Part shown: one piece after another, positions 1 to 36,298 of the stretch
Layout of the letters: the number at the start of each line of letters is the position of its first letter
How positions within the stretch are numbered: position 1 is the stretch's first letter
Program-made: the position numbers and the translations under genes
Notes under the pieces: model-generated
Database searches by the model: none
Seen by the model: only the letters and a program-made list of their open reading frames with translations
What the model was told of the DNA's origin: nothing
Origin: Gammaproteobacteria bacterium
Lineage (GTDB): Bacteria > Pseudomonadota > Gammaproteobacteria > Steroidobacterales > Rariloculaceae
Reading direction: 5' to 3'
Length of the DNA stretch: 64,000 nucleotides
Assembly: GCA_963664945.1 (NCBI GenBank)
Contig: OY761822.1
Location: forward strand, 3,783,162-3,847,161

Positions 1-1480
1 TCTCGCGGGTGCTTTCCCCGGTCTTGACCACGACGCGCTCGCGCTGCACGCGCAGCGCCTGACGGCGTGCGGGCAGATCGCACCGCCCGTCCCACTTGGC
101 GGGCGTGAGGTCGAAGGCCGCGCAGCGGCGGGTCTCCAGCCGCCCATGGGCCTTGTGCAGCGCCTCGGCGCTCCAGCGCGCCTGGCTCCAGTCGATGTCC
201 GCCAGGTCCTCGCGAATGCTCGGCTGGTTGCCCTTCACGGCGGTGATCGCGTAGTCGGCCTTGCACTCCTCCACCAAGCAGCGCGCCGTGTCGTGTTGGG
301 CGTGGATGGCGTCGAGCGTGACGACGCGCCCGGCGAGGTCCAGTTGCCGCGCCAGTTCGCGCACCGCCGGGATCTCGTTGCTTTTGGCGCCGATGCGCAC
401 CTGCCCGAGCACCAGGCCGCTGCCGTGCTCCACCGCGGCCACCATCATCTGGCGTTCGCCCTCGGTCCGCCTGGAGGCGCCGCGCACGTCCTTGCCGTCC
501 ATGGCCACCGGCGCAAGCCCGGCATGCTGGGCGCTCCAGGCGCGCAGCGCCCGATCCAGAGTGTCCGGCGGCAGCTTCGAGAGGATGTAATGGAAGGTCG
601 AGGCAGCGGGCACTGTGTAGCACTGGCGCGTCGGGCTGAAGAACCCGCCCACCGCACGGCGCTGCGCCTCGTCGAGCCGGGCGGCGAACTCCCCGAACGC
701 GCTCACGCCGCGATACCCGGCCAGGCGCGCCGCGATCATGATCGTCAGGTAGCTCGCCAAGCTGTAGCGCTGCCCGCGCCGTTTGCGAAAATCCTCCATC
801 TCCCCGAGAAAGTCGTGAAGACTGCGCAATTGCCCCGCCGGCATCGGCGCCTCGCGCACCTCCACGGGCTCGCGCCCATCGCGTAGCGCCTCGCGGGCGC
901 CGGCTTCAAGCTCGTACACGTAAACCTCCTTGGGCTGGCCGTGCTCGCGCCACCGCGCCGGGCTGCCGTACACCCGCGAATAACCGCGCGTCAGGCCCAG
1001 CATCCGCCAGTTCGACGCCCGGTAGCAAACCCCCGAAAACCGCGACGGGTCCACGAACGTCTCCGCCAACAGCACCGGGAAACCGTGCATCGCGCGCATG
1101 TCCCCCGACAGCCGGCGCAGACTCAGACCCAGCACCCGAGAGGCCAGGTTGCGTACCTCCCCCTTGCCCACCAGCAACGCGAAACGGCTGTTGTTCGCGA
1201 TCAGCTTCAGCCGCCGAAACTGCCGCTCCGGCGGCCAACCCAGCCACTCGTCCCGAACCCCGACCTTGAACGCGCCCGCCGTCCAGCCCAGCAGCGCAAC
1301 CCGGCTCCCGCCGCATACCGCCACGTGACGCAGCGACTGACCGAACAATCCCTTGTACGGCAAATAGTGAAACTCCCTCATCAGCGCGTCCCAACGCCGC
1401 CGCTCCGCCACGCCGCGCACCGGGCGCACCCACACATCGCGCAACTTCAACCGGCCACGGGAAAACACCGAGATCACCAT
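1..1480 (-). CDS. ISAs1-family DDE transposase with N-terminal DUF4338-like domain (3' end cut by window edge)
   Basis: My own translation of the minus strand from ATG 1480 is open all the way to position 1. It is absent from the ORF track because no stop lies inside the window. N-terminal part: MVISVFSRGRLKLRDVWVRPV...ETFVDPSRFSGVCYRASNW (DUF4338-like). Then RKRRGQRYSLASYLTIMIAARLAGYRG...AMDGKDVRGA...TLDAIHAQHDTARCLVEECKADYAITAVKGNQPS, which are hallmarks of ISAs1/H-repeat transposases. Track ORFs 146..886 and 941..1513 are shadows of this frame. Confidence 0.8.
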   Translation of the reverse strand, partial: MVISVFSRGRLKLRDVWVRPVRGVAERRRWDALMREFHYLPYKGLFGQSLRHVAVCGGSRVALLGWTAGAFKVGVRDEWLGWPPERQFRRLKLIANNSRFALLVGKGEVRNLASRVLGLSLRRLSGDMRAMHGFPVLLAETFVDPSRFSGVCYRASNWRMLGLTRGYSRVYGSPARWREHGQPKEVYVYELEAGAREALRDGREPVEVREAPMPAGQLRSLHDFLGEMEDFRKRRGQRYSLASYLTIMIAARLAGYRGVSAFGEFAARLDEAQRRAVGGFFSPTRQCYTVPAASTFHYILSKLPPDTLDRALRAWSAQHAGLAPVAMDGKDVRGASRRTEGERQMMVAAVEHGSGLVLGQVRIGAKSNEIPAVRELARQLDLAGRVVTLDAIHAQHDTARCLVEECKADYAITAVKGNQPSIREDLADIDWSQARWSAEALHKAHGRLETRRCAAFDLTPAKWDGRCDLPARRQALRVQRERVVVKTGESTRE

Positions 1481-1664
1481 GACCCCCTTTATGCCACAAC
1501 GACTTCTGAATAGCCAGACCTTGCACAGCCTGACCGCTTCCCTCACCGTTTACAGCCTCAGGCTATACGCCCCGACTTTTGGAGAGCCCTGGCCGGGTCC
1601 GCGCCCGCGTGGCTCCACCCAATCCCTGCTGGTACAATTCGCCGTCCTTCCGAGAGGTCCCCAC

Positions 1665-2648
1665 ATGAGCGAGAACGCCGACCCGCATCATCCGACCCTG
1701 CCTCCTGCCCCGCTGGGACTGGCTACCGTCAAGGAACCCGTCACCGGCTACATCGTCTCCAACGACTCGTGCCTCAAGGGCAAATCGGCGAGTTTCGTCA
1801 GGCACACGGCCATCGACATCAGCGGCACGCCGCTTGCAGGACGCTGCCTGGTGGGCCAGGCGTTCGGCGTGCTTGCGCCAGGCGCGGACGAGAGAGGCAA
1901 GCCGCACAAGGTGCGCCTTTACTCCATCGCGTGCCCGGACGATGGCGAAGACGGCGCCGGCTGCGTGATCTCCACCACGACCAAGCGGGTCATTGGCGAA
2001 CGTTATCCGCAGAAGAAGGATGACGACCCGGACGATCACAGCCTGTTCCTGGGCGTGTGCAGCAATTTCATGTGCGACCTGCGACCGGGCGATCCGATCA
2101 AGGTTTCAGGCCCCAACGGCAAGCGATTCCTGCTCCCCACCGCCGGTACGCGGGAGAATCACGACTATGTCTTCGTCGCCACCGGTACGGGTATCGCGCC
2201 GTTTCGCGGCATGGCCATGGAATTGCTGCAACGCAAACCCGTCTCAAGCCAGATTCACCTGGTCATGGGCGCGCCCTATACCACCGACCTCATTTACGAC
2301 GACCTGTTTACGGAACTTGCCGCCGAGCACCCCAACTTCCATTACCACACCGCGATCAGCCGGGAAACGCGGCCGGACGGCCGGCGCGGCCAATACGTGC
2401 ATCACTTGATGGACGAACAGATGGATCTCTTCGGTCCGGTGCTCGCCAACCCGCGGACGCTCCTTTATATCTGCGGGCTGGCCGGCATGCAGAGCGGCCT
2501 GTTCCAGTCCATGGCGAGGCACCGCGTGGGCGACGGCTACTTCACCCTCAAGAAGCAACTGGCCGGCGTGGACCCGGCCGACTGGCAGTTGAGCCAGGTT
2601 CGCCGCGGCGTGCGCTCCACGCCCCGCTGCATGGTCGAGGTGTATTAG
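1665..2648 (+). CDS. ferredoxin-NADP+ reductase, plant-type (FNR)
   Basis: Start moved to internal ATG 1665 (MSENADPHH), preceded by GAGAGG. FAD/NAD(P)-binding motifs present: RLYSIA, GVCSNFMC, FVATGTGIAPFRG, YICGLAGM. Characteristic C-terminal ...VEVY. Confidence 0.85.
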   Translation: MSENADPHHPTLPPAPLGLATVKEPVTGYIVSNDSCLKGKSASFVRHTAIDISGTPLAGRCLVGQAFGVLAPGADERGKPHKVRLYSIACPDDGEDGAGCVISTTTKRVIGERYPQKKDDDPDDHSLFLGVCSNFMCDLRPGDPIKVSGPNGKRFLLPTAGTRENHDYVFVATGTGIAPFRGMAMELLQRKPVSSQIHLVMGAPYTTDLIYDDLFTELAAEHPNFHYHTAISRETRPDGRRGQYVHHLMDEQMDLFGPVLANPRTLLYICGLAGMQSGLFQSMARHRVGDGYFTLKKQLAGVDPADWQLSQVRRGVRSTPRCMVEVY

Positions 2649-2714
2649 GCGTTTGCGCGGTGGGCTCGCTGCGCTGACGCGCAGGGAAGCGGGTTCTTCC
2701 AATCAAGTAGTGAA

Positions 2715-2803
2715 CCCGGCGGCGCCCGCCCGCGGACGCGAGACAGAAAAAGATGATCAGCGCCGCGTAGAGCAGCCCGGCGGCGCCGGCCCGCGGACGC
2801 GAG
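2715..2803. repeat. 28-bp direct repeat x2 (period 61) in convergent intergenic region
   Basis: cccggcggcgcc[c/g]gcccgcggacgcgag at 2715-2742 and 2776-2803, with 1 mismatch. Lies between the 3' ends of FNR (+) and the DUF885-like gene (-). No coding support. Confidence 0.7.
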
Positions 2804-2906
2804 GGAACAAACGACCGCCCTCCAACAGAAAATCAAGAAGTTGCGTGTTTGTTCCATGGAAGCCCGCGCCGTGGAAATTCACGGCTGCATAGCCATTTGC
2901 GATCAA

Positions 2907-4328
2907 TTACTGCGCGGGTTGCGCACCGCCGACGAGTATGGCGACCGAGAACGGCTCCGTCAGCAACTGCTCGAAGAGCGACCATCGCCGCGCCGGGATT
3001 CCGCCGGATTCCCTTTCGACGTAGACGCCCACCAGGTCCTGGCCCAGGCTGTAGTTGATGACGTATGTCCGGTAGGTATCGATGAAGTCCAATGATTGCT
3101 CGGCCTCTTCGACCGAGATGAGTTGGATGCGCTGCAGCCAATCCACCGTTTCCGCTCTTGTCTTGCGGCCATCCAGATAGTCCCGCGCCGCATCGATACG
3201 CGCATAGCCGAGTTCTTCGCGCAAACTCAGATACCGGTAGTAGCGCTCGGCCTGACTCGGGTCGAGGCCGGCCAGCGGGAAGAGCGCCTCCACTTCGTAA
3301 TCGATGCGCTGCTGCCCGGGAAAAGCCAGCTCGATTCCATAGTTGGCGCTGCCCTCGCTGAGCAACGCCGTCGGGCTGTACAACGGATAGACCGAAAATT
3401 CGATCCATCCCCTGCCCCGGTAGAGTTCCCGCTCCACCAGCGAGCCGAACGTGTGGTGTCCCGGGTATCCCTCATGGCAGCCCAGATCGATCGCCCGGTC
3501 GATGTGCCTGGGCAAATCCGTATTGATCTGGATCAGGCTGAAGGCATCGCCCTGGAACCAGTTGTAGCCGCTCCAGGGCTGGTCGGTGACGTACTCGAGC
3601 GTGAAGTCTTCGCCGGGCGGCAATTGGATGTATTCGGCAGTTCGTCGCCGGCACTCGGAGATGGCGGCATCGAAGACCTCGCTCATCCGGTTGGGCGGAA
3701 TGACAAACTGCTCGCGGAAGGCTATCGCGCGCTCACCCAAATCCCCATCACCTGGAAGTATGGAATCGAGTTGTTCCAAAATCGATTCGTAGTGAGCGTC
3801 ATCGTGGTCCGGCGCAACGACCCCGAACACGAGTCGTGTTTCCTCGTCGAACGGCAGGTCGGCGCCGGAGACGACGCCGATACGCGCGGAAAGTGAAATC
3901 AGCAGGTTCTCCAATGCCGTGGCTCGCAGCGTCGCGAGGCGGTCTTCCGATGGCTCCAGAGTGCGCAAGTCCCGCAGCAATTCGTCGGCGCCGGCGCGAA
4001 TGTCGTCCAGCGTGGGGAATCGCCCGGGCGCCGCTTCGGCCACTTCCGGGGCACCGATATAGGCGTCGACGTATCCCGGATCGTGTTCATCCATGGCCAG
4101 AACCAGGTGCGCGTAATCCTCGGCTATGCGATCCAGGGTTGCTGCCGGGAAGGGTTCGCCTGCCGCCTGTTCGGCCGTGCTCGCCGCCTGCTCGGCCGTG
4201 CTCGCGACCTGCCCCGTGGCCGGCACGTCCGTCGCCGCGCCCGGCGGCTCTTCCGGGCCGCACCCGGTCAGCAGGAAGAGGATGCCCAGACCAAAAGGGA
4301 TCGTCGACGAATTTCGTTCTCTTGCCAT
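2907..4328 (-). CDS. DUF885-like lipoprotein (putative metallopeptidase fold)
   Basis: Start moved to ATG 4328 (MARERNSSTIPFGLGILFLLTGC, lipobox LTGC), preceded by GGGGGAAAGGAC. Contains the HEGYPGHH motif typical of the DUF885 family. Confidence 0.75.
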   Translation of the reverse strand: MARERNSSTIPFGLGILFLLTGCGPEEPPGAATDVPATGQVASTAEQAASTAEQAAGEPFPAATLDRIAEDYAHLVLAMDEHDPGYVDAYIGAPEVAEAAPGRFPTLDDIRAGADELLRDLRTLEPSEDRLATLRATALENLLISLSARIGVVSGADLPFDEETRLVFGVVAPDHDDAHYESILEQLDSILPGDGDLGERAIAFREQFVIPPNRMSEVFDAAISECRRRTAEYIQLPPGEDFTLEYVTDQPWSGYNWFQGDAFSLIQINTDLPRHIDRAIDLGCHEGYPGHHTFGSLVERELYRGRGWIEFSVYPLYSPTALLSEGSANYGIELAFPGQQRIDYEVEALFPLAGLDPSQAERYYRYLSLREELGYARIDAARDYLDGRKTRAETVDWLQRIQLISVEEAEQSLDFIDTYRTYVINYSLGQDLVGVYVERESGGIPARRWSLFEQLLTEPFSVAILVGGAQPAQ

Positions 4329-4368
4329 GTCCTTTCCCCCGCCAACCCGATTATCCGCGCTCGCCCGG

Positions 4369-5442
4369 TTACCCGCCTTCGATTCCCAGCAGCCGAGCCG
4401 CATTACCGCCGATGATGGCTTCCTTGTCGGCATCGGTAAGCGCTGCCGCACCACTGACGAAGCCCACCGGATCATACATGCCCATGTCGAAGGGATAGTC
4501 CGTGCCCAGGACGATATGGTCGCTGCCGTAGAGGCCCGCGAGGTATTCCAACTGGTGCTCGGTGAAGACCACCGTGTCGAAGTAGAGGCGCCTCAGATAG
4601 CTGCCGGGCGGCTCCTTGATGCAGCGCCGACAGTCTCCCCTCGCTGCGTGGGCGTGGTCGATGCGGCCCGAGTACGCCGGCAGGAAACCGCCGCCGTGGG
4701 CGACGCAGATCTTGAGCCCGGGGAAACTGTCCAGCACGCCGTCGAAGATCAGGTGGCTGACCGCCACGGTGGAATCCAGCGGGTTGCCGATGACGTTGAT
4801 GAAGTAATGATCGCCCAACCGTGCGCCGTCGGAAAACCCGTTCGGATGGAGAAAAATCAGCGCGTCGAGTTCTTCGGCCCTTGCGAACACGGCCCGAAAG
4901 CGCTCGTGCGAAAGCTCTTCACCGTTCACGTTCGTGCAAAGCTCGATGCCCTTGAACCCAAGGTCGCCGATCACGCGCTCAAGCTCCGCAACGGCCATTT
5001 GGGGGTCCTGCATGGGCAATCCGCCCAGGCCGACAAACCGGTCCGGATGCGCAGCCGCGACCGCGGCGATTTCGTCGTTGATGAGCCGGGTAGCCGTGCG
5101 GCCCAGATCCGGCGGGAGTGCGTAGTAGTACTGCAGCGGAACAGGGGAAATCGCCTGTATGTCGATTCCCATGCTGTCCATGTCCGCCAGGCGCCGGTCC
5201 ATGTCCACAAGCTGTTCGTGAATCGTCTCGGATTGCCGCGCATTGACCTCGCGCGTGGCTTCGTTTGAGAAACGGTGCAGCCCATCGGTCTCCATGTCGA
5301 AAACACCGGCGACCGCCTCGGCCGCTGCCGGTACGTACATATGGCAATGCAGGTCCACGCTGCGCGAACGAGACTTTGAACGCGCAGCCGCCCGTCCGGG
5401 TGCTGTCCCCGAAGCGGGTCCGGGGCTGCAGGAATAGAACAT
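4369..5442 (-). CDS. amidohydrolase_2 family protein (ACMSD/LigW-like metal-dependent hydrolase/decarboxylase)
   Basis: VDLHCHMYVP metal-binding start, ICVAHGGGFLP, and LGTDYPFD near the C-terminus. ATG 5442 is preceded by GGAGG at a 6-nt spacing. Confidence 0.8.
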   Translation of the reverse strand: MFYSCSPGPASGTAPGRAAARSKSRSRSVDLHCHMYVPAAAEAVAGVFDMETDGLHRFSNEATREVNARQSETIHEQLVDMDRRLADMDSMGIDIQAISPVPLQYYYALPPDLGRTATRLINDEIAAVAAAHPDRFVGLGGLPMQDPQMAVAELERVIGDLGFKGIELCTNVNGEELSHERFRAVFARAEELDALIFLHPNGFSDGARLGDHYFINVIGNPLDSTVAVSHLIFDGVLDSFPGLKICVAHGGGFLPAYSGRIDHAHAARGDCRRCIKEPPGSYLRRLYFDTVVFTEHQLEYLAGLYGSDHIVLGTDYPFDMGMYDPVGFVSGAAALTDADKEAIIGGNAARLLGIEGG

Positions 5443-5478
5443 CGGGCGCCTCCGATTCGCGCCGGTACCGGGCCGCCG

Positions 5479-6498
5479 CTAGTTGGAACTCATGTGCTGA
5501 TCGAAGAACGCGATTGCGTCCGTCACCGCCGCCTTCTGGAAGGCGTCCGGTTCGTAGGCGCCCTCGGCATTGCGTTGCACGAAGATGAAACCGTGGTGGT
5601 CATGGTCGTAGGAGCGCCACTGTACGGTCTTGCCGGCCTCTTCCATGAGTTCATAGGCAAGCCTGAACGTCGCCTGGTTGTGATCCCGGTCCCGGCCGGC
5701 GATGAAGATGGGCATGTCGATGGCCCGGATCCGCGCCATGGCCAGTTCCTTGTCGATCTGTCCGCGCATTGCCTCGACTGCGGCAGCCTGCATCTGTGCC
5801 GTGTTGCTCTCTCTGGTTTCGGGTTGCGGCGGCTCGGGCGGTGCGTTGGGATCCGGGGGCAGCGGCGCCAGGTAGTCCATGGCAGCGGGTTCGGCCGCGA
5901 CGCCGGCCCGTAATCCATCGTATGCGGAAGCCACTTTCAGCAGCATTTCGCCACCGTGGCTCACGCCGAGCCAGCCGACTCGATCTGCATCCACATCAGG
6001 CAATTCCCGCACGTATTCCACGATCTCGATGGCATCCTCGTATTCCAGCGGTCCCCGGTTCCACCGGTCGCGGCCCTGAAACTCCCTTACCGTGAGTTGC
6101 GTAGTGAAGGGGGTATCGACCTCGGCCCGATACCGCATCCACACGACCGCATAACCGGCATCGAGAAACGCCTCCAGCGTGCCGCTGCCGTACTGGGTCC
6201 ACTCGCGAATCCAGCGCAGCCCATAGCCGCCGTTCATGTGCGCGAAGACGACCGTCGGGAAGGGGCCCTCCCCGGCAGGTTTCCTGAACCCGATGGGCGC
6301 GTAGACACCGTCCAGCAGTTCCACGAACCGCATTTCCACGGGGATTTCCGAGCCCATGACCGGCTCGACAAGCACCGCCTCCTCCCCGGTGACTCGCTCG
6401 GGCACGAACAGCCACATGGGATCGATGCCGTGGTTTTCCTGTGCGGCGGCGCCCGCGGTGAATACTGCCGTGATGGCAATCCAGAATATGCAGCGCAT
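5479..6498 (-). CDS. secreted alpha/beta hydrolase (dienelactone hydrolase / S9 peptidase-like)
   Basis: Signal peptide MRCIFWIAITAVFTAGAAAQ. Nucleophile elbow GVSHGGEM. C-terminal DHDHHGF region. SD GAGGGT lies upstream. Confidence 0.75.
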   Translation of the reverse strand: MRCIFWIAITAVFTAGAAAQENHGIDPMWLFVPERVTGEEAVLVEPVMGSEIPVEMRFVELLDGVYAPIGFRKPAGEGPFPTVVFAHMNGGYGLRWIREWTQYGSGTLEAFLDAGYAVVWMRYRAEVDTPFTTQLTVREFQGRDRWNRGPLEYEDAIEIVEYVRELPDVDADRVGWLGVSHGGEMLLKVASAYDGLRAGVAAEPAAMDYLAPLPPDPNAPPEPPQPETRESNTAQMQAAAVEAMRGQIDKELAMARIRAIDMPIFIAGRDRDHNQATFRLAYELMEEAGKTVQWRSYDHDHHGFIFVQRNAEGAYEPDAFQKAAVTDAIAFFDQHMSSN

Positions 6499-30142: not shown

Positions 30143-31533
30143 ATGACGAACAGAACGAAGATAACAATGGTGGGCGCACTGGCCTTCGCGCCTGCGGGCG
30201 GGCGCGAAGGCGTGCTGTGGGACAGCGCGGCACTGGGACTCGGGCTGAGAGTGCGACCAAACGGGCGCAAGACATGTATCGTGCATCGGCGTTGCAACGG
30301 CTCCGTCATCAAACGGACGCTCGGCAGGCCCGACGCGCTGACGGTGGAGGATGCACGGCACGCGGCGTGAGCGATGTTCGCCGATGCCCGAACGAACGGC
30401 GCGCCGGCGACGCTCCCGACGGTGCGGACATTCGCGCCGGCGTTACTCGCCGACTGCGCCGAACGCTGGAAGCCAGCGACGCAGCGAGCGAACGCGGACG
30501 GCGTGCGCCTGCACATACTGCCAATCTTCGGCAACCGGCGCGTCGATGCGGTCACGGCGAGGGACGTGCGCAACTGGTCCGACGATCTCTCGGCCACGCG
30601 GGCGGGAACAGCGAATCGGACGTTGACGGTATTGTCGTCGATGATGAAGCACGCGGAAGCGCTCGGACTACGGCGCGAGGACTCTAAACCGTGCAAGGGA
30701 CTGCGGCGGCGCAAGACGGGATTCAAGGCGCATTACTTGGCGTACGACGAATTCGCGGCGCTTGGCCGGGCCTTTTTGGTCGTCCGAGCTGATATTGCCC
30801 GCTTCTTCCACAAGTACGGGCACAGAAAGCCGGGCGGCGCGAATCGCAGCCATGAGATACTGCGCAACATCTTCGACTGCGCCATGGCGCGGGGCCATCG
30901 GTCTGAAGCTGCGGGGAATCCGTGCAAGGGGATCGTCCGCTACCGGCGACCGCCGCGCGGTCGCCTGCTGGGCCGGGATGATCTGGCGAAGGTCGGCGCG
31001 CGATCCTGCGTCTGCGCGAAGGAGACAAGCCGACCTGCGTCGCGGCGGTGCGCCTGCTCCTGCTGACGGGGTGCAGGCCGCGCGAGATACGCCCTCTGCG
31101 CTGGTGTGCGAGGTCAAGGCGGACCGACTCACCCTCATTGACGCCAAGACCGGACCGAGGCACGTTCTGCTCGGTTCGGCGGCGCGGGAGCTGCCGGATA
31201 GCCTCGGCGAGTCGGCTTCCGGATAGTGGGTGTTTCCGTCCAGTAGACAAGACGGCCCGTTGACCAAGAACGAAATCTACTGGTTCTGGACCACGACGCG
31301 CGACGCGGCCGGGGTCGTGGCAGATGCGCGGCTGCATGACCTGCGCCATGCGCACGCCTCGCACGCGGACATGTAATGGGGAGAATCTGCATGTCGTGGG
31401 ACGCCTGCTCGGGCATCGGCGAGCGTCCACGACGAAGCGCTATGTCCACCTCGACGACGCGACCCTGAGCCAAGCTGCTGAGCGTGTTGCCACAGCGATC
31501 CTAGGGAAACTGCTCGGGACGCGCAAGGTATGA
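30143..31533 (+). pseudogene. P4-type tyrosine integrase, multiply disrupted
   Basis: N-terminus GLGLRVRPNGRKTCIV (DUF4102-like). Lesions in order: in-frame TGA at 30368-30370; a frame change near 31000 (to VRLLLLTGCRPREIRPLRW); a frame change near 31105 (EVKADRLTLIDAKTGPRHVLL); in-frame TAG at 31224-31226; WVFPSS...ARLHDLRHAHAS then TAA at 31374-31376; a final frame change into NLHVVGRLLGHRRASTTKRYVHL. All catalytic R/H-x-x-R/H/Y blocks are recognisable but spread over 3 frames. Confidence 0.85.
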
Positions 31534-31568
31534 TACGGTCGGGTTCGGGAAAACGGGGCGACTGCACC

Positions 31569-32201
31569 ATGGCGAATTCACCGGCAGCGGAACTATCGGG
31601 TTTTTTGGGCAACGAGAAGTTTGGGACCATCCTCGCGGATCCTCCATGGCGTTTCGCAAACCGCACGGGCAAGGTCGCCCCCGAGCATCGTAGGCTGTCA
31701 CGGTATGTCACACTTTCCTTTGACGAGATAGCTGCACTGCCAGTCGCCGATCATGTCGCCGATAGGGCGCATTGCTACCTGTGGGTACCCAATGCCCTTT
31801 TGCCATGGGGCCTACATGTGCTCTGCGCATGGGGATTCGAATACAAGACGAACATTATCTGGCACAAAATCCGTAAGGATGGGGGCCCGGACGGTCGAGG
31901 AGTTGGCTTCTACTTCCGCAACGTAACCGAAGTTATCCTATTCGGAGTTCGCGGAAAGAATGTGCGTACGCTCGCCCCTGGACGCAGCCAAATTAATTTC
32001 ATTGCTAGCCGAAAGCGGGAACACTCGCGAAAACCGGATGAGCAATATCAGATCATCGAAGATTGTAGTTGGGGGCCTTACCTAGAACTGTTTGGTCGCG
32101 GTATTCGCGACAATTGGACGGTATGGGGCAATCAGGCGGACTCGGACTATCGGCCAGACTGGCCGACATACGACTACAATTCTGCGGTTGCGGCACCTTG
32201 A
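31569..32201 (+). CDS. MT-A70 family N6-adenine DNA methyltransferase
   Basis: FGTILADPPWRF (DPPW catalytic motif), CYLWVPNALL, NIIWHK, EHSRKPDEQY. Lower GC than the flanks. Start is ATG 31569 or 31530. Confidence 0.85.
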   Translation: MANSPAAELSGFLGNEKFGTILADPPWRFANRTGKVAPEHRRLSRYVTLSFDEIAALPVADHVADRAHCYLWVPNALLPWGLHVLCAWGFEYKTNIIWHKIRKDGGPDGRGVGFYFRNVTEVILFGVRGKNVRTLAPGRSQINFIASRKREHSRKPDEQYQIIEDCSWGPYLELFGRGIRDNWTVWGNQADSDYRPDWPTYDYNSAVAAP

Positions 32202-32932
32202 ATCTGACCGATCTAGAAGGCGCAGGTTTCGACGTACAAGCTGAGAACCACGCGCTGGCAGTGCTCACCAAGGACTTCCCCGAGCCGTTGGGTGAGTTGT
32301 GCGATGCTCTTATGGAAGTCCGAATCTCGGATGTCGAATTGGTCCGGGGCGGCGGTGGCGAGGCCAATTCCACGCAGCGCCTTCGGCGCTCCCTTACGGA
32401 TCGAGGCTGGTTCAAGCGCAATATCGTAATCAGGAAAATCGTTGATGGTGCGGAGCGTGCGGCAATCTCGCACGAGATAGACCATGTGCGAAGAACCGAT
32501 AACGGAGCCGTCGCATTGGAAATCGAGTGGAACAATAAAGACCCTTTCTTTGATCGTGATCTCGAGAATTTCCAGAGGCTCCACAGTGAAGGTGCGATCA
32601 GCGTCGGCGTGATTGTCACACGCGGCGAGTCTCTGCAGCGGAATCTAGTTCGCATTGTCGCGACATGCGCGCTCAATAACGGCGTACGTGGCTTTGAGGA
32701 TCTTGCGCGGTTCGGGTTGAACCCAACTCGTCGCCAGCGCGACATGGTTAAAGAAGTCGGCGAAGGCTTTGTTGGAGAATGGGCACGGCGGTTTGTGCAG
32801 GACAAGTTTGGTAGCTCGACCACACACTGGGGGAAGTTGACCGTGCGGATCAATCGGGGCGTGGGTAATCCTTGCCCTTTGCTATTGATCGGAATACCGG
32901 CGGGTTCCGTTCATCAGGCGAGACTTGAATGA
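32198..32932 (+). CDS. BamHI/BglII-fold type II restriction endonuclease (candidate)
   Basis: SHEIDHVRRTDNGAVALEIEWNNKDPFFDRDLENFQRLH...ISVGVIVTRGE is colinear with BglII GTDIDFGKRDTLVEVQFSN...VAIIITKGH and BamHI VGMEFETGNISSAHRSMNKLL...LAIILMP. The proposed TTG start at 32198 overlaps the methylase stop (TTGA). The upstream part of track ORF 32069.. lies inside the methylase gene. Confidence 0.6.
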   Translation: MNLTDLEGAGFDVQAENHALAVLTKDFPEPLGELCDALMEVRISDVELVRGGGGEANSTQRLRRSLTDRGWFKRNIVIRKIVDGAERAAISHEIDHVRRTDNGAVALEIEWNNKDPFFDRDLENFQRLHSEGAISVGVIVTRGESLQRNLVRIVATCALNNGVRGFEDLARFGLNPTRRQRDMVKEVGEGFVGEWARRFVQDKFGSSTTHWGKLTVRINRGVGNPCPLLLIGIPAGSVHQARLE

Positions 32933-32962
32933 GTAGGATCAGGCGGATTAGCCAATGTCGCC

Positions 32963-33682
32963 TTGCGGAGAAAGGAATTGACACGAACAGCGAAGCACAT
33001 CTTGGGCGAAGTGCGGGCGTTGGCTGTTGAGTATTATCAACTGACCGGAAAGCCATTGGGCGTGACTGGCGAGATTGGAGAATTCGAGGCGGCAGAAAAA
33101 ATGGGATTGGAGCTAGGAGCGGCGCGTACCGTTGGTTACGACGCTATTCGCCATGATGGCCCATACAGGCGAATCCAGATCAAGAGCCGCTGGAAACGTG
33201 ATGGCGTGAGTTGGGGTCGGGTTTCGAAAATCGACATTTCGAAGGAATTCGACAGCGTCATGTTGGTCCTGATGCACGGCGATTACGAGGTCCACGAGAT
33301 TTGGGAGGCGGGGCGGCAAGCCATAATTGACCGTCTGACGGCGTCTGGCTCGAAGTCTCGCAATGAACGGGGCCAAATGGGAGTCTCACAATTCAAGTCG
33401 ATAGCCGATAAGGTATGGCCTATGGGCAGGCGACGGATGCAGGCCCAGCCAACAAGGCAAGGATCAAAGGCGTTATGCAAGTCTAGGGGCAACAAGATCT
33501 GTCCTGAGTGTGGGCATATTTTTCAAGGGAACGGTTGGGACGGCATCAACGCTCATTGGCGATCCCAGCATGAACGCATAATGCCCTACGAAAAGGCATG
33601 GCCACTGCTTCGCTCTGGCAGCTACGAAAACAACATTACAAGCCGACGTGCTACCGAATTGATTGATGACGACCACGGGTAA
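32963..33682 (+). CDS. uncharacterised PD-(D/E)xK-like nuclease domain protein with C-terminal C2H2-type zinc finger
   Basis: GVTGEIGEFEAAEKMGLELGAARTVGYDAIRHDGPYRRIQIKSRWK forms a D...QxK core; from memory it resembles DUF6998/Mrr-cat-like proteins. The C-terminus has CPECGHIFQGNGWDGINAHWRSQH (CxxC-x14-H-x4-H). TTG start, 30 nt after the endonuclease stop. Confidence 0.5.
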   Translation: MRRKELTRTAKHILGEVRALAVEYYQLTGKPLGVTGEIGEFEAAEKMGLELGAARTVGYDAIRHDGPYRRIQIKSRWKRDGVSWGRVSKIDISKEFDSVMLVLMHGDYEVHEIWEAGRQAIIDRLTASGSKSRNERGQMGVSQFKSIADKVWPMGRRRMQAQPTRQGSKALCKSRGNKICPECGHIFQGNGWDGINAHWRSQHERIMPYEKAWPLLRSGSYENNITSRRATELIDDDHG

Positions 33683-33950
33683 GACATGGCAATATCGTGT
33701 CCTGGCGGGGACAGCGGTTGTTAGGTAGGAGGGAGTCGGGACAGGAAGTAGGACTCGCGTAAGGGGCTGAAGCCAAAGCAGTTTTTATCCTTTTTGAGGC
33801 CGATTCGGGGCCGAATGATCAGCATCGCAGAAACGTGGGGTGTGAGAGCAAAAGCCTGCAACTGCAGTCGAACAGGCGAAAACCCAAACACACCGTCTTG
33901 GGCTGGAGGCGTCGCCGTTGCGCGATTGCGATGATACATCGAATTGGAGA

Positions 33951-35910
33951 GAGCCACTTGCGCTGTTCCGTAGTCGTTGATTGGTAAGGGTTTTAAGGCA
34001 CCCTCAAAAGAACTTTACCCCAGGATTGGGCTGTTTTGGGCCGGTTTCGGGTCGTTTTTCCCTATCGGAGGGGATTTTCACCCCAGGAGCCGGACAGGCC
34101 GACCGAGGGGGCAAGAAAAGAGGGGAGAAGCCGGCCGTCATGGGGCAAAATAGGGTTTCGATATCCACATGCCACTCCGAGGAGCAACCATGACGACCGG
34201 CCAGACCAAGTTACTCTTTTCCTGGGACGATGTCGATTCGTTGCCGGACATGCGGCGGTTGAGGCTGGTGTTGGATCATCTGCCGGACGGCCCGGTCGTG
34301 GAGGCGCTGCGCGCCCGCCGGGGCCGGGGCCGGGACGACTATCCGGTGGAGGCGATGTGGCGGGCGCTGGTGGCCGGGGTGGTGTTCCAGCATGCCTCGA
34401 TCGAGTCGTTGTTGCGGGAGCTTGGGCGCAATCCGGGGTTGCTGTCGCTGTGCGGGTTCAACCCGTTGCCGAGGCGGGGCAAGCCTTGCCGGGAGGTGCG
34501 CCCGCATCCCGGGACCGGCGCGGCCACGGTGGTGGAGTTTCCGAGTCCGGCGCGCCCGGCGGTTCCGAACGCGTGGAACTTCTCCCGGTTCCTGGAGTCG
34601 GTCGAGGCCGTGGAGGCGGACACGGGCTGCGTGACGGGGATGATCGACACGCTGCGCGGGGGGCTCAAGGAGGCGTTGCCGGATTTCGGCGGGCATCTGG
34701 GCTACGACGGCAAGGCCATCGGGAGCCATTCCACGGGGCGGACGAACCGCGAGACGGGCCGGACCTCGGACCCGGAGGCGGACTGGGGCAAGCACGAGAC
34801 GCGCGGCGTGGACGCAAAGACGGGCAAGGCGTGGACGAAGGTGAAGAGCTGGTTCGGTTACCGGCTGCACCTGATCGCCGACACCCGGTACGAGATTCCG
34901 GTGGCGTTGGAGGTGACGAAGGCCTCGGCGTCGGAGCCGGTGGTGTTGTCGGAGATGGTGCGCGAGTTGCTCGGCAAGGATCGGGGCCTGGCGGACCGGT
35001 GTTCGGATTTCAGCGCCGACCGGGGACTGGACAGCGCCAAGCTGAAAGCGGCGCTGTGGGACGATCATGGCATCCGTCCGTTGATCGACACGCGGGCGAT
35101 GTGGCGGGAGGAGAAGGCGGAGCCGGGGTACGATCCGTCCAAGCCGATCCTGCGTCCGCTGTACCCGGAGCGGGTGGACACGGTGGTGCATTCGGAGAAG
35201 GGCGAGGTGGTGTGCCGGTGCCCAAAGACAGGCGAGCAGCGCCCCATGGCCTTCCAGGGGTTCGAGGCCGACCGGGGCACGCTGAAGTACCGTTGTCCGG
35301 CGGCGGCGTACGATCTTCACTGCCAGGGCCGGGCCATCTGCCACAAGCGGGCCGGCTGCGCGGCGGGGGACTACGGGCGCATCGTGCGCATCGACCTGAA
35401 CAAGGTCGACCGGCGCATCTTCACGCCCACCCCGCACGGCAGCCCGAGTTGGCGGCGCGGCTACAAGCGCCGCGCGGCGCTGGAGCGGATCAACGCCCGC
35501 CTGGACAACGACTTCGGCTTCGAGCGCCATTACATCCGCGGCCACGCGGCGATGAAGACCCGGGTCGGGCTGGCGCTGGCCATCATGATGGCGTTGGCGC
35601 TGGGACACGTGCTTCAGGGCCGTCCCGGGCAAATGCGCTCCCTGGTCGGCGCGGTGCCGTTCGCCGACACCGGATAGCGCCCCCGGCGCCCCCGTTTCCA
35701 TCCCCCGGGACCGACGCGTGGACGCCCCGTCCGGGACCGCCCCTGTCCGTCCGGCGCGCCCAAACGACAATCGTTCTCATTTGGCCCGCGCCCAGGGCGA
35801 TTTTCAGCTACGAGAACCGACTTGGCGCTTCATCCCGCCCTCGAACACACCAACCGCTGTTCCGTGCACGGCCTCGGGCGTGGCGAAATACCCCACAGCG
35901 CAAGTGCCTC
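33951..35910 (+). mobile_element. IS element, IS4/IS5 superfamily (IS1182-like), about 1.96 kb
   Basis: Candidate terminal inverted repeats are gagccacttgcgctgt (33951-33966) and its complement acagcgcaagtgcctc (35895-35910), 15/16 identical. They bracket a single 495-aa DDE transposase gene. Confidence 0.55.
34190..35677 (+). CDS. DDE transposase (DUF772 N-terminus + DDE_Tnp_1; IS1182/IS5-like)
   Basis: Start moved to ATG 34190 after GAGGAG. DDYPVEAMWRALVAGVVFQHASIESLLRELGRNPGLLSLCGF, LGYDGKAIGSH, WFGYRLHLIADTRYEIPVALEVTKA, SADRGLDSAKL, cysteine-rich KYRCPAAAYDLHCQGRAIC, ALERINARL. Track ORFs 34036..35928 (+) and 34211..35770 (-) are shadows. Confidence 0.85.
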   Translation: MTTGQTKLLFSWDDVDSLPDMRRLRLVLDHLPDGPVVEALRARRGRGRDDYPVEAMWRALVAGVVFQHASIESLLRELGRNPGLLSLCGFNPLPRRGKPCREVRPHPGTGAATVVEFPSPARPAVPNAWNFSRFLESVEAVEADTGCVTGMIDTLRGGLKEALPDFGGHLGYDGKAIGSHSTGRTNRETGRTSDPEADWGKHETRGVDAKTGKAWTKVKSWFGYRLHLIADTRYEIPVALEVTKASASEPVVLSEMVRELLGKDRGLADRCSDFSADRGLDSAKLKAALWDDHGIRPLIDTRAMWREEKAEPGYDPSKPILRPLYPERVDTVVHSEKGEVVCRCPKTGEQRPMAFQGFEADRGTLKYRCPAAAYDLHCQGRAICHKRAGCAAGDYGRIVRIDLNKVDRRIFTPTPHGSPSWRRGYKRRAALERINARLDNDFGFERHYIRGHAAMKTRVGLALAIMMALALGHVLQGRPGQMRSLVGAVPFADTG

Positions 35911-35924
35911 GGAGAAGACTCCGA

Positions 35925-35952
35925 TTGATTCTATACGGCATAGCCGTATAAT
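35925..35952 (+). promoter_or_regulatory. sigma70 promoter with overlapping perfect palindromic operator (TA-locus autoregulation site)
   Basis: TTGATT (35925-30), 16 nt, then TATAAT (35947-52). The palindrome TATACGGC-ata-GCCGTATA (35932-35950) spans the spacer and the -10 box, 7 nt upstream of the toxin-remnant ATG. Confidence 0.65.
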
Positions 35953-35958
35953 CTACCG

Positions 35959-36033
35959 ATGTACAGCTTTACCGAAACAAAGCTGTTTACTCGGCTCGTT
36001 CAACACTACCTGACCGACATGGAAAATGACTGA
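35959..36033 (+). pseudogene. HigB-2-type (RelE-fold) toxin remnant, 24 codons
   Basis: MYSFTETKLFTRLVQHYLTDMEND* matches the N-terminus of V. cholerae HigB-2 (..VFVESTIFEKYRDEYLSDEEYRLFQ..) and then stops. The rest of an approximately 110-aa toxin is missing. The ORF overlaps the antitoxin ATG (36026). Confidence 0.6.
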
Positions 36034-36298
36034 GGAACATCGAGATATCGGTCGAGAGATTCTAGAGGGACTGCGCGAACTCAAGCGCGAAGAACATGGT
36101 CGCATAGTTAATCTGCCAGACGTTGCTTCAGTCCGTAAAAAGGTCGGATTGTCACAGGCACGTTTCGCGGAGTTGCTCGGAATATCGGTGAGGACGCCGC
36201 AAGACTGGGAACAAGGACGTCGGTCCCCTTCTGGCGCAGCCCGCACGCTGCTTGCCATTGTTGACAAGGATCCCACGGTGTTGCTGGAGGTGGCTTGA
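36026..36298 (+). CDS. HTH (Xre/COG2944-type) antitoxin
   Basis: GREILEGLRELKR...VRKKVGLSQARFAELLGISVRTPQDWEQGRRSPSGAARTLLAIVDKDPTVLLEV is the canonical COG2944 antitoxin partnered with HigB-2/PF06296-type toxins. Confidence 0.85.
   Translation: MTEEHRDIGREILEGLRELKREEHGRIVNLPDVASVRKKVGLSQARFAELLGISVRTPQDWEQGRRSPSGAARTLLAIVDKDPTVLLEVA

Follow-up and report, generated by a model that had tools for sequence, protein, structure and literature searches.

The locus described here raises the question of whether three adjacent genes form a single restriction system or two systems lying side by side. The genes occupy positions 31569 to 33682 of a stretch of 64,000 nucleotides (nt), hereafter the window, from contig OY761822.1 (assembly GCA_963664945.1) of a gammaproteobacterium of the family Rariloculaceae, and they encode a putative MT-A70-type DNA methyltransferase (M), a putative restriction endonuclease (R) and a third protein (gene 3) in which a nuclease-like core is followed by a zinc-finger-like tail. 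A first-pass annotation, made from the letters of the DNA, read M and R as a type II restriction–modification (R-M) module with an unusual MT-A70 partner, and gene 3 as a component that standard R-M models do not explain. The explanation of the whole locus that we consider probable is that it is the remnant of an island carrying two independent and complementary restriction functions, namely an R-M pair and a BisI-like nuclease.

Gene 3 runs from TTG 32963 to 33682 on the + strand, and its residues are counted from that TTG throughout. The N-terminal domain (N-domain; 32963–33421, + strand, amino acids (aa) 1–153) is best read as a BisI-family PD-QxK nuclease of the Esp638I/Pam7902I subgroup. 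Its match to the Pfam family DUF6998 (PF22522) scores 44.4 bits (1.9e-11), well over the gathering score, which is 27, and because Eco15I itself exceeds the Pfam threshold, with 40 bits, DUF6998 covers the BisI family. PADLOC splits that family into PDLC03212, which takes Eco15I and NhoI, and PDLC03209, 'type II methyl-directed restriction enzyme', which takes gene 3 at 7.5e-41 and Pam7902I at 6.3e-55. A tblastn search of plasmids identified a homologue on plasmid pPlaYM7902A of Pseudomonas amygdali YM7902, the protein of which, WP_054068722.1, is the published accession of Pam7902I (PMC8281217); BLASTP aligns it with gene 3 at 49% identity over 150 aa (E=1e-44). Pam7902I and Esp638I cleave GCS^SGC that carries 5-methylcytosine (m5C) (PMC8281217). 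Given the PADLOC model and this identity to Pam7902I, the notion that gene 3 lies beyond standard R-M models has to be given up.

In Pam7902I, activity is abolished by the substitutions E39A, D59A, K74A, D98A and D106A and lowered by Q72A (PMC8281217). Residues E40, D60, Q72, K74 and D97 of gene 3, all aligned to residues of Pam7902I, are invariant across 33 homologues, and the first four of them align with E39/D59/Q72/K74 of Pam7902I and E49/D69/Q79/K81 of Eco15I. A PDB search with the single gene 3 sequence returned nothing useful, and only the family profile reached Eco15I: built from 33 gene 3 homologues, it matches PDB entry 8q5m at 2e-6, aligned over the catalytic motifs. The AlphaFold (AF2) model of the N-domain has a predicted local distance difference test score (pLDDT) of ~90, and NhoI and Eco15I chains take all of the first 11 places in Foldseek (E=4.5e-8 to 8e-5), with PvuII and DpnI behind them, which is the same order of structural relatives as that given for the BisI family by PMC11347163. 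Both the PD-(D/E)XK core residue set, expected as Glu on helix α1, Asp at the head of β2 and QxK on β3, and an NhoI/Eco15I-like protomer fold (α0–α1, then a mixed β-sheet) are present in gene 3, and the ratio of non-synonymous to synonymous substitution rates (dN/dS) of the N-domain is 0.08–0.17. The motifs on which the first-pass annotation had relied, GEIGEFEAAEKMGLEL, GYDAIRHDG, RRIQIKSRW and CPECGHIFQGNGWDGINAHWRSQH (C-x2-C-x14-H-x4-H), were found in the translation, and its description of a PD-(D/E)xK-type core with D...QxK, then a C2H2 zinc site, agrees with the residues and with the predicted fold; the check that it had suggested, against DUF6998 and by structure, gave DUF6998 in Pfam and the NhoI/Eco15I restriction-endonuclease fold in Foldseek. 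Judged by sequence and model, the gene 3 N-domain is a predicted BisI-family modification-dependent endonuclease, a new, diverged member of a characterised family. Among the four roles that had been offered for gene 3, those of modification-dependent nuclease and of independent defence gene stand, and those of controller and of second effector found no support.

Homologues of gene 3 (n=298) are mostly proteins of ~150 aa with the nuclease domain alone, and their N-domain identity reaches 86%. Their neighbourhoods were inspected for 6 kb either way at 82 loci, comprising 80 species-representative genomes and two metagenome contigs, and at none of the 82 did a homologue of M or R lie within that distance. 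A motif screen followed by a Pfam check verified a DNA methylase at eight of these loci, the enzymes belonging to unrelated families (Eco57I-type, N6_N4 and C5), and at 72–74 loci the screen detected none. Homologues at 78–87% identity sit alone, as do L004 and L097, which are full-length and tail-bearing, and among 144 flanking genes from a first batch there was no recurrent partner but dnaX, found at five Rhodobacterales loci. Most BisI homologues are likewise without a companion methylase and were apparently acquired alone (PMC4926085). In the Rhodobacterales loci (L015, L022, L023, L028 and L033; at about 4100–6450) the DUF6998 gene lies directly downstream of dnaX, a placement in keeping with a housekeeping context that suggests long-term chromosomal residence in this lineage. 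At locus L008 (4351–7868) a tail-less homologue (83%) lies between two methylase genes, one for an Eco57I-type N6-adenine enzyme, 58 nt upstream, and one for a C5 cytosine enzyme, 357 nt downstream; the latter is an odd neighbour for a nuclease presumed to depend on m5C, although it would be less so if the two had different specificities or if the methylase were inactive, as has been reported for the one beside BisI. A role for gene 3 as a controller (C-protein) was rejected, as neither Pfam nor NCBIfam detects a helix-turn-helix (HTH) domain in it and it is not obligatorily linked to M-R.

The same separation is seen from the side of the R-M pair. At L087–L091, L094 and L095, M-R is followed by an insertion sequence (IS), argJ, a 424-aa HSDR_N_2-like gene or others, and not by gene 3; with M-R found without gene 3, and gene 3 without M or R at 82 of 82 loci, the idea of an obligatory three-gene system fails. 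The synteny of the trio, which the first-pass annotation had proposed as a check, does recur, and is confined to one shallow sub-clade. A block of 2.5 kb (31325–33804), comprising the 3′ fragment of an integrase gene, M, R and gene 3, is shared with the metagenomic contigs L001–L003 at 96% DNA identity by blastn, with flanks that differ on both sides; the trio is found at 88% DNA identity in L092 and L093, and as a remnant at 79% in L086, in which aa 11–54 of gene 3 are followed by IS1595. Outside this sub-clade, gene 3 and M-R are unlinked. Within it, a BisI-like gene has for some time stood 30–45 nt behind R, probably co-transcribed with it, and the trio would be a stable juxtaposition of two complementary, known defence types rather than a three-component machine. 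The slots beside the M-R module seem to gather other restriction-type genes: L086 has a 707-aa GmrSD_N/SLFN_AlbA_2 (type IV-like) gene at 1164–3287, directly upstream of its M-R copy, and in L094 the 424-aa HSDR_N_2-like gene (2300–3574) comes after R.

M (31569–32201, + strand; ATG 31569 to TGA 32199–32201) is a protein of 210 aa that covers the full Pfam model MT-A70 (3e-28) and matches the PADLOC type II methylase model MTase_II at 1.5e-89, and its nearest solved relatives in a PDB search are MT-A70 proteins and METTL3 (~1e-17). The amino-methyltransferase motif (D/N/S)PP(Y/F/W) is present as DPPW within ILADPPWRF, which, with EHSRKPDE, was found in the translation as previously noted. With a dN/dS of 0.06–0.10, M is a predicted N6-adenine DNA methyltransferase of the MT-A70 family (beta-class, DPPW). 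R (32198–32932, + strand; 244 aa) matches Pfam Endonuc-BglII at 2.7e-28 over model positions 1–162 of 163, has a dN/dS of 0.07–0.20, and belongs with homologues in at least 7982 clusters, almost all of 244 aa, for which the NCBI name is 'BglII/BstYI family type II restriction endonuclease'. The three R motifs picked out by the first-pass annotation, SHEIDHV, ALEIEWNN and VGVIVTRGE, were also found in the translation. The residues D95...E108-x-E110 are invariant in the homologue alignment, and we take them to resemble the ExE of BamHI rather than the ExQ of BglII. In the PDB, a single-sequence search with R gave nothing useful and a close-homologue profile no match, BglII, BamHI and BstYI included, so its catalytic residues are not directly alignable to those of BglII or BamHI and R is a distant member of the BglII/BstYI family; the fold assignment rests on the Pfam model. 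NCBIfam has no match for M, R or gene 3, and counts of 6-bp palindromes were discarded as a guide to the specificity of R, there being too few in 64 kb.

At every R-homologue locus opened (L001–L003 and L086–L095; R identity 70–95%), an MT-A70 gene lies directly upstream with the same 4-bp overlap, and the pair is kept in all eight further sampled loci. The M homologues are of 210–220 aa in L086–L095 and are called at 223 aa in L001–L003. The prokaryotic radiation within which the MT-A70 clade is nested also contains the methyltransferases of the BglII R-M system (PMC4738411); given this link and the retention of the pair, the MT-A70 partner is not unusual. The Pfam and PADLOC matches and the conserved adjacency bear out the reading of M and R as a type II R-M module, which would be a common, self-contained one of a kind already known.

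The tail of gene 3 consists of two parts. The linker (33422–33496, + strand, aa 154–178) is basic and predicted to be disordered, with pLDDT <50 at residues 156–175, an isoelectric point (pI) of 12.0, and 8 K/R but no D/E. The zinc module (33497–33628, + strand, aa 179–222) is of C2H2 type, predicted to form a β-hairpin and two helices, with pLDDT of 87–93 when modelled with the rest of the protein and 80 when modelled by itself. Its four zinc ligands (C180, C183, H198, H203) show no variation in either alignment, A2 or A4, its conserved pattern is CPECGHxFxGNGWDGIDAHWRxKHExxMPYExAWPLIxSGxY, and its dN/dS is ~0.26. No Pfam model matches the module, zf-C2H2 and ROS_MucR included; the matches of a PDB profile search were confined to the classical C2H2 knuckle and the finger of KREPA2, with Ros absent, and Foldseek of the isolated module gave no structural match in the PDB. 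A comparison by hhalign with an approximate Ros sequence gave 37% probability, and kinship with Ros/MucR is unproven.

An exhaustive profile search with the zinc module yielded 419 cluster representatives (50% identity), 290 of them at E<=1e-10. Most members are free-standing proteins of 55–150 aa, while the remainder have the module joined, N- or C-terminally, to unrelated domains, among them RHH-like, methyltransferase-like, DUF429 and amidohydrolase ones. Two copies occur in some members (P0122, P0123), and in peat metagenomes the module recurrently adjoins DegT-type aminotransferases and NrdR. It was rejected as a defence-specific domain, as its neighbourhoods (150 proteins, 61 distinct metagenome loci) consist for the most part of housekeeping genes and show no steady tie to defence. 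An origin in phages or in anti-defence was also rejected, the module being rare in viral contigs (6 loci) and gene 3 having no homologue in INPHARED phages.

In L092, gene 3 is of 149 aa and ends exactly at the domain boundary, with DNA homology to the window stopping at 33420, from which the zinc tail can be seen to be a modular addition or loss. Tail-bearing homologues occur apart from any R-M system (L004, L097, L012, L021, L025 and L026) and persist to ~45% N-domain identity. Because this tail-less copy exists, most homologues are of ~150 aa, and the module is free-standing or fused elsewhere, the tail appears to be accessory, and the zinc module would be dispensable for the core activity of the nuclease family. 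Some BisI homologues on mobile elements also have extra C-terminal domains of unknown role, for example Eco15I (PMC4926085). The zinc module most likely contributes auxiliary binding, either of nucleic acid or of a partner protein, and its distribution points to a portable, previously undescribed domain family, the fusion of which to a BisI-like nuclease appears to be new. It is conceivable, albeit doubtful, that the module is a widespread prokaryotic recognition or gating domain that recruits or licenses gene 3 cleavage on a cue beyond m5C density, in which case M, R and gene 3 would be transcribed together as a restriction operon with two prongs and would not be a chance juxtaposition; a particular structure or modification of the DNA might serve as the cue, as might a conserved protein of the host or of a phage.

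The layout of the cassette agrees with what had been described. M, R and gene 3 are three intact, co-directional open reading frames (ORFs) on the + strand in the ORF list of the window, and they do lie in its lowest-GC stretch: GC is 0.53–0.57 over 31500–34250 against a window mean of 0.635, and the 2-kb bin 32001–34000, at 0.546, is the lowest of 32. R starts at a TTG that overlaps the stop codon of M (TTGA, a 4-bp overlap), and a 30-nt gap separates it from gene 3, both features being confirmed in the sequence. An in-frame ATG at 31530 is an alternative start for M, but the lengths of the homologues, 210 aa for M and 244 aa for R, favour ATG 31569 and TTG 32198. For gene 3, the start is more likely to be the in-frame TTG 32978 than TTG 32963, because GGAG (32967–32970) stands 7 nt upstream of it and the resulting product, of 234 aa, matches the start positions of the closest homologues, P0001 and L092. 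The three genes are not chance ORFs, having Pfam matches, hundreds to thousands of homologues and dN/dS of 0.06–0.26, and by this ratio all parts of the cassette are under purifying selection. A promoter and terminator scan gave nothing exceeding shuffled expectation.

The cassette is in a decayed integrative island, as seen from a broken integrase gene upstream and an IS downstream. The left end of the island is a tyrosine integrase pseudogene (30143–31533, + strand) that is broken up over four or more ORFs lying in different frames (30143–30370, 30374–31066, 31048–31263 and 31324–31533). The second piece matches Pfam Phage_int_M and Phage_int_SAM_3, and the last is homologous to the integrase fragments that precede M in L001 and L092; the pieces comprise an Arm-binding-like N-terminus, a SAM/central domain and, in two parts, the catalytic domain. 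Downstream of gene 3, the island is truncated by an IS4/IS5-like element (33951–35910, + strand; GC 0.67–0.72) with 16-nt terminal inverted repeats, 94% complementary, at 33951–33966 and 35895–35910, and a 502-aa transposase (34169–35677; Pfam DDE_Tnp_1/DUF772). The element begins ~270 nt past gene 3, and homology to island L001 ends shortly before it, at 33804. Beyond the IS lies a gene for a 90-aa MqsA-like/HTH_3 antitoxin (36026–36298), with a 63-aa ORF directly upstream (35822–36013). No tRNA or Rfam element marking an integration site was detected in the window, and no convincing att-type direct repeats were found.

The mechanism that we propose starts from the families to which the proteins belong, their conserved catalytic residues and fold, the patterns of gene linkage and the signs of purifying selection, all of which rest on data, and from them we infer the recognition sites, the matching of M and R sites, the TTGA coupling, co-transcription, the m5C dependence of gene 3 and the role of the zinc module. 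Two restriction functions would stand side by side, probably co-transcribed. M would mark adenine, as N6-methyladenine (m6A), in the host copies of a short recognition site, and R would cut unmethylated copies of that site in incoming DNA, with the overlapping TTGA coupling translation of R to that of M. Gene 3, by analogy with NhoI and Eco15I, would act as a homodimer through E40/D60/Q72/K74 and Mg2+, cutting inside a short GC-rich site of GCNGC or GCSSGC type only when this carries several 5-methyl- or 5-hydroxymethylcytosines, and would thus attack phage or other foreign DNA that evades ordinary R-M through cytosine modification. The zinc module would be an accessory, portable domain held on the basic, disordered linker. 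The two functions would not conflict, because the host mark made by M would be m6A and no C5 methylase motif lies within the 64-kb window, which holds 828 GCNGC and 313 GCSSGC sites.

A number of observations weigh against this reading and are best considered with the explanations that they favour. The spacing between R and gene 3 is tight, 30–45 nt, in four lineages down to 79% DNA identity (the window, L001–L003, L092/L093 and the L086 remnant), with no predicted terminator or promoter between the genes, and the 2.5-kb block has moved as a unit between different flanks. Such recurrence could mean functional coupling rather than hitch-hiking, and gene 3 might then belong to the R-M system as its third part, whether as second effector or as specificity or targeting subunit, with an action dependent on M or R, so that the three genes would make up one functional unit. 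Real functional coupling of gene 3 with M-R is improbable in our estimation, and a role as integral component is unlikely, as none of the 82 species-level gene 3 loci has M or R, the full-length, tail-bearing homologues L004 and L097 are alone, M-R is followed by other genes in L087–L091, L094 and L095, and Pam7902I, Esp638I, NhoI and Eco15I act as single proteins (PMC8281217, PMC11347163). Alternatively, gene 3 could be a conventional, PvuII-like type IIP endonuclease acting on unmodified DNA, the host being shielded by M or another methylase. Structurally, PvuII, which is itself a conventional type II enzyme, ranks directly behind the BisI family, two BisI homologues, Bce1273I and Bth171I, cut unmodified DNA (PMC4926085), a close homologue of gene 3 lies between two methylases in L008, and divergent methylases may have escaped the motif screen of the neighbourhoods. 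Existence without a methylase would be lethal for a conventional endonuclease, however, and homologues 78–87% identical to gene 3 are in most genomes without one within 6 kb; identity is also 49% to the m5C-dependent Pam7902I against 13–15% to PvuII in structural alignments. A conventional enzyme served by M was rejected on the evidence of these solitary homologues, and the PvuII-like explanation as a whole strikes us as very improbable.

Other observations bear on whether gene 3 is active, and on what. D98 of Pam7902I corresponds to D97, but the essential D106, to which PMC8281217 assigns no defined role, corresponds to H105, a position that varies as H/R/S/N/D in near relatives. The ~20-aa segment of NhoI and Eco15I that holds the (H/R)(V/I/T/M) methyl-contact motif, as His139-Val140, has no counterpart in gene 3 by MAFFT alignment; this segment is also missing from Pam7902I and from Pam7902I-like Pseudomonas proteins, and since Pam7902I is active without it, the motif does not define the Pam7902I subgroup. 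At 49% identity to Pam7902I, the site and the modification requirement of gene 3 may differ. As the window covers 64 kb of the host genome, a C5 methylase may be encoded elsewhere in it, and the core of the zinc module has a pI of 6.3, which is slightly acidic. With H105 in place of D106, with a zinc module that is highly conserved, reused in many non-nuclease contexts and found among housekeeping neighbours, and with an island that is decaying through integrase pseudogenisation and IS insertion, gene 3 might be an impaired or repurposed BisI-like protein, a regulator or sensor that binds modified DNA, with the zinc module as its main function. There is little probability in this, to our mind: E40/D60/Q72/K74/D97 are invariant across the 33 homologues, the N-domain has a dN/dS of 0.08–0.17, and position 105 is variable also in the abundant 150-aa homologues without any other domain. 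An R-M pair and an independent BisI-like nuclease remain our preferred reading of the locus.

This reading has consequences for annotation. All 28 plasmid-borne gene 3 homologues are annotated as 'hypothetical protein' or have no annotated gene, Pam7902I on pPlaYM7902A included, and the annotation of the DUF6998 family is therefore behind the literature. As DUF6998 covers the characterised BisI, Eco15I and Pam7902I, such genes can be annotated as putative m5C-dependent restriction endonucleases. The clade of gene 3, ~50% diverged from Pam7902I and highly conserved across phyla, may yield new specificities dependent on m5C or 5-hydroxymethylcytosine (5hmC) for epigenetic tools. The ligand of the zinc module, once found, would annotate hundreds of small proteins. 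The locus itself is a compact pairing of a modification-blocked and a modification-dependent nuclease on a mobile island, a principle already established.

Considering the systems to which the parts of the locus can be compared, gene 3 is closest to Pam7902I and Esp638I, with which it shares E...D-X(11-12)-QxK plus D97/D98, a nuclease domain of ~150 aa, the same PADLOC sub-model, and an occurrence mostly as solitary genes on plasmids, islands and chromosomes. Pam7902I differs in having neither the ~25-aa basic linker nor the ~45-aa C2H2 module and in having D106 instead of H105, and gene 3, unlike it, lies directly behind a type II R-M pair. NhoI and Eco15I (8rpx, 8q5n, 8q5m, 8q5o) are its best Foldseek matches, with E=4.5e-8 to 1e-6 and template-modelling (TM) scores of 0.5–0.59 relative to the target, and the QIK motif of Eco15I is identical to that of gene 3; identity in structural alignments is, however, 16–19%, and they fall under PDLC03212 rather than PDLC03209. 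Eco15I is also like gene 3 in its extra C-terminal domain and its linkage to mobile elements (PMC11347163, PMC4926085), but that domain, of ~110–130 aa and without a reported metal site, bears no relation to the zinc module. The module resembles classical C2H2 and Ros/MucR fingers in its CxxC...H-x4-H arrangement, its CPECGxxF knuckle and its predicted β-hairpin followed by helices, and Ros in the P..Y..W.L pattern after the second His, and differs from them in a longer inter-ligand loop, of 14 residues, and in its slightly acidic core.

For M and R, the comparison is with BglII/BstYI R-M systems that have MT-A70-clade methylases, and it is supported by the full-model Endonuc-BglII match of R, the MT-A70 match of M with DPPW, and the conserved pairing, whereas R is without a direct sequence match to the solved BglII, BamHI and BstYI structures; there is no C (controller) gene in this locus. 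As a whole, the locus differs from composite defence loci such as bacteriophage exclusion (BREX) with BrxU/GmrSD, or the E. coli immigration control region, in being a minimal, three-gene block of 2.1 kb in an integrase-linked island, restricted to one shallow sub-clade, and no shared regulator is seen here. What it has in common with those loci is that modification-blocked and modification-dependent nucleases stand side by side, so that invaders with unmodified and with modified DNA are both covered.

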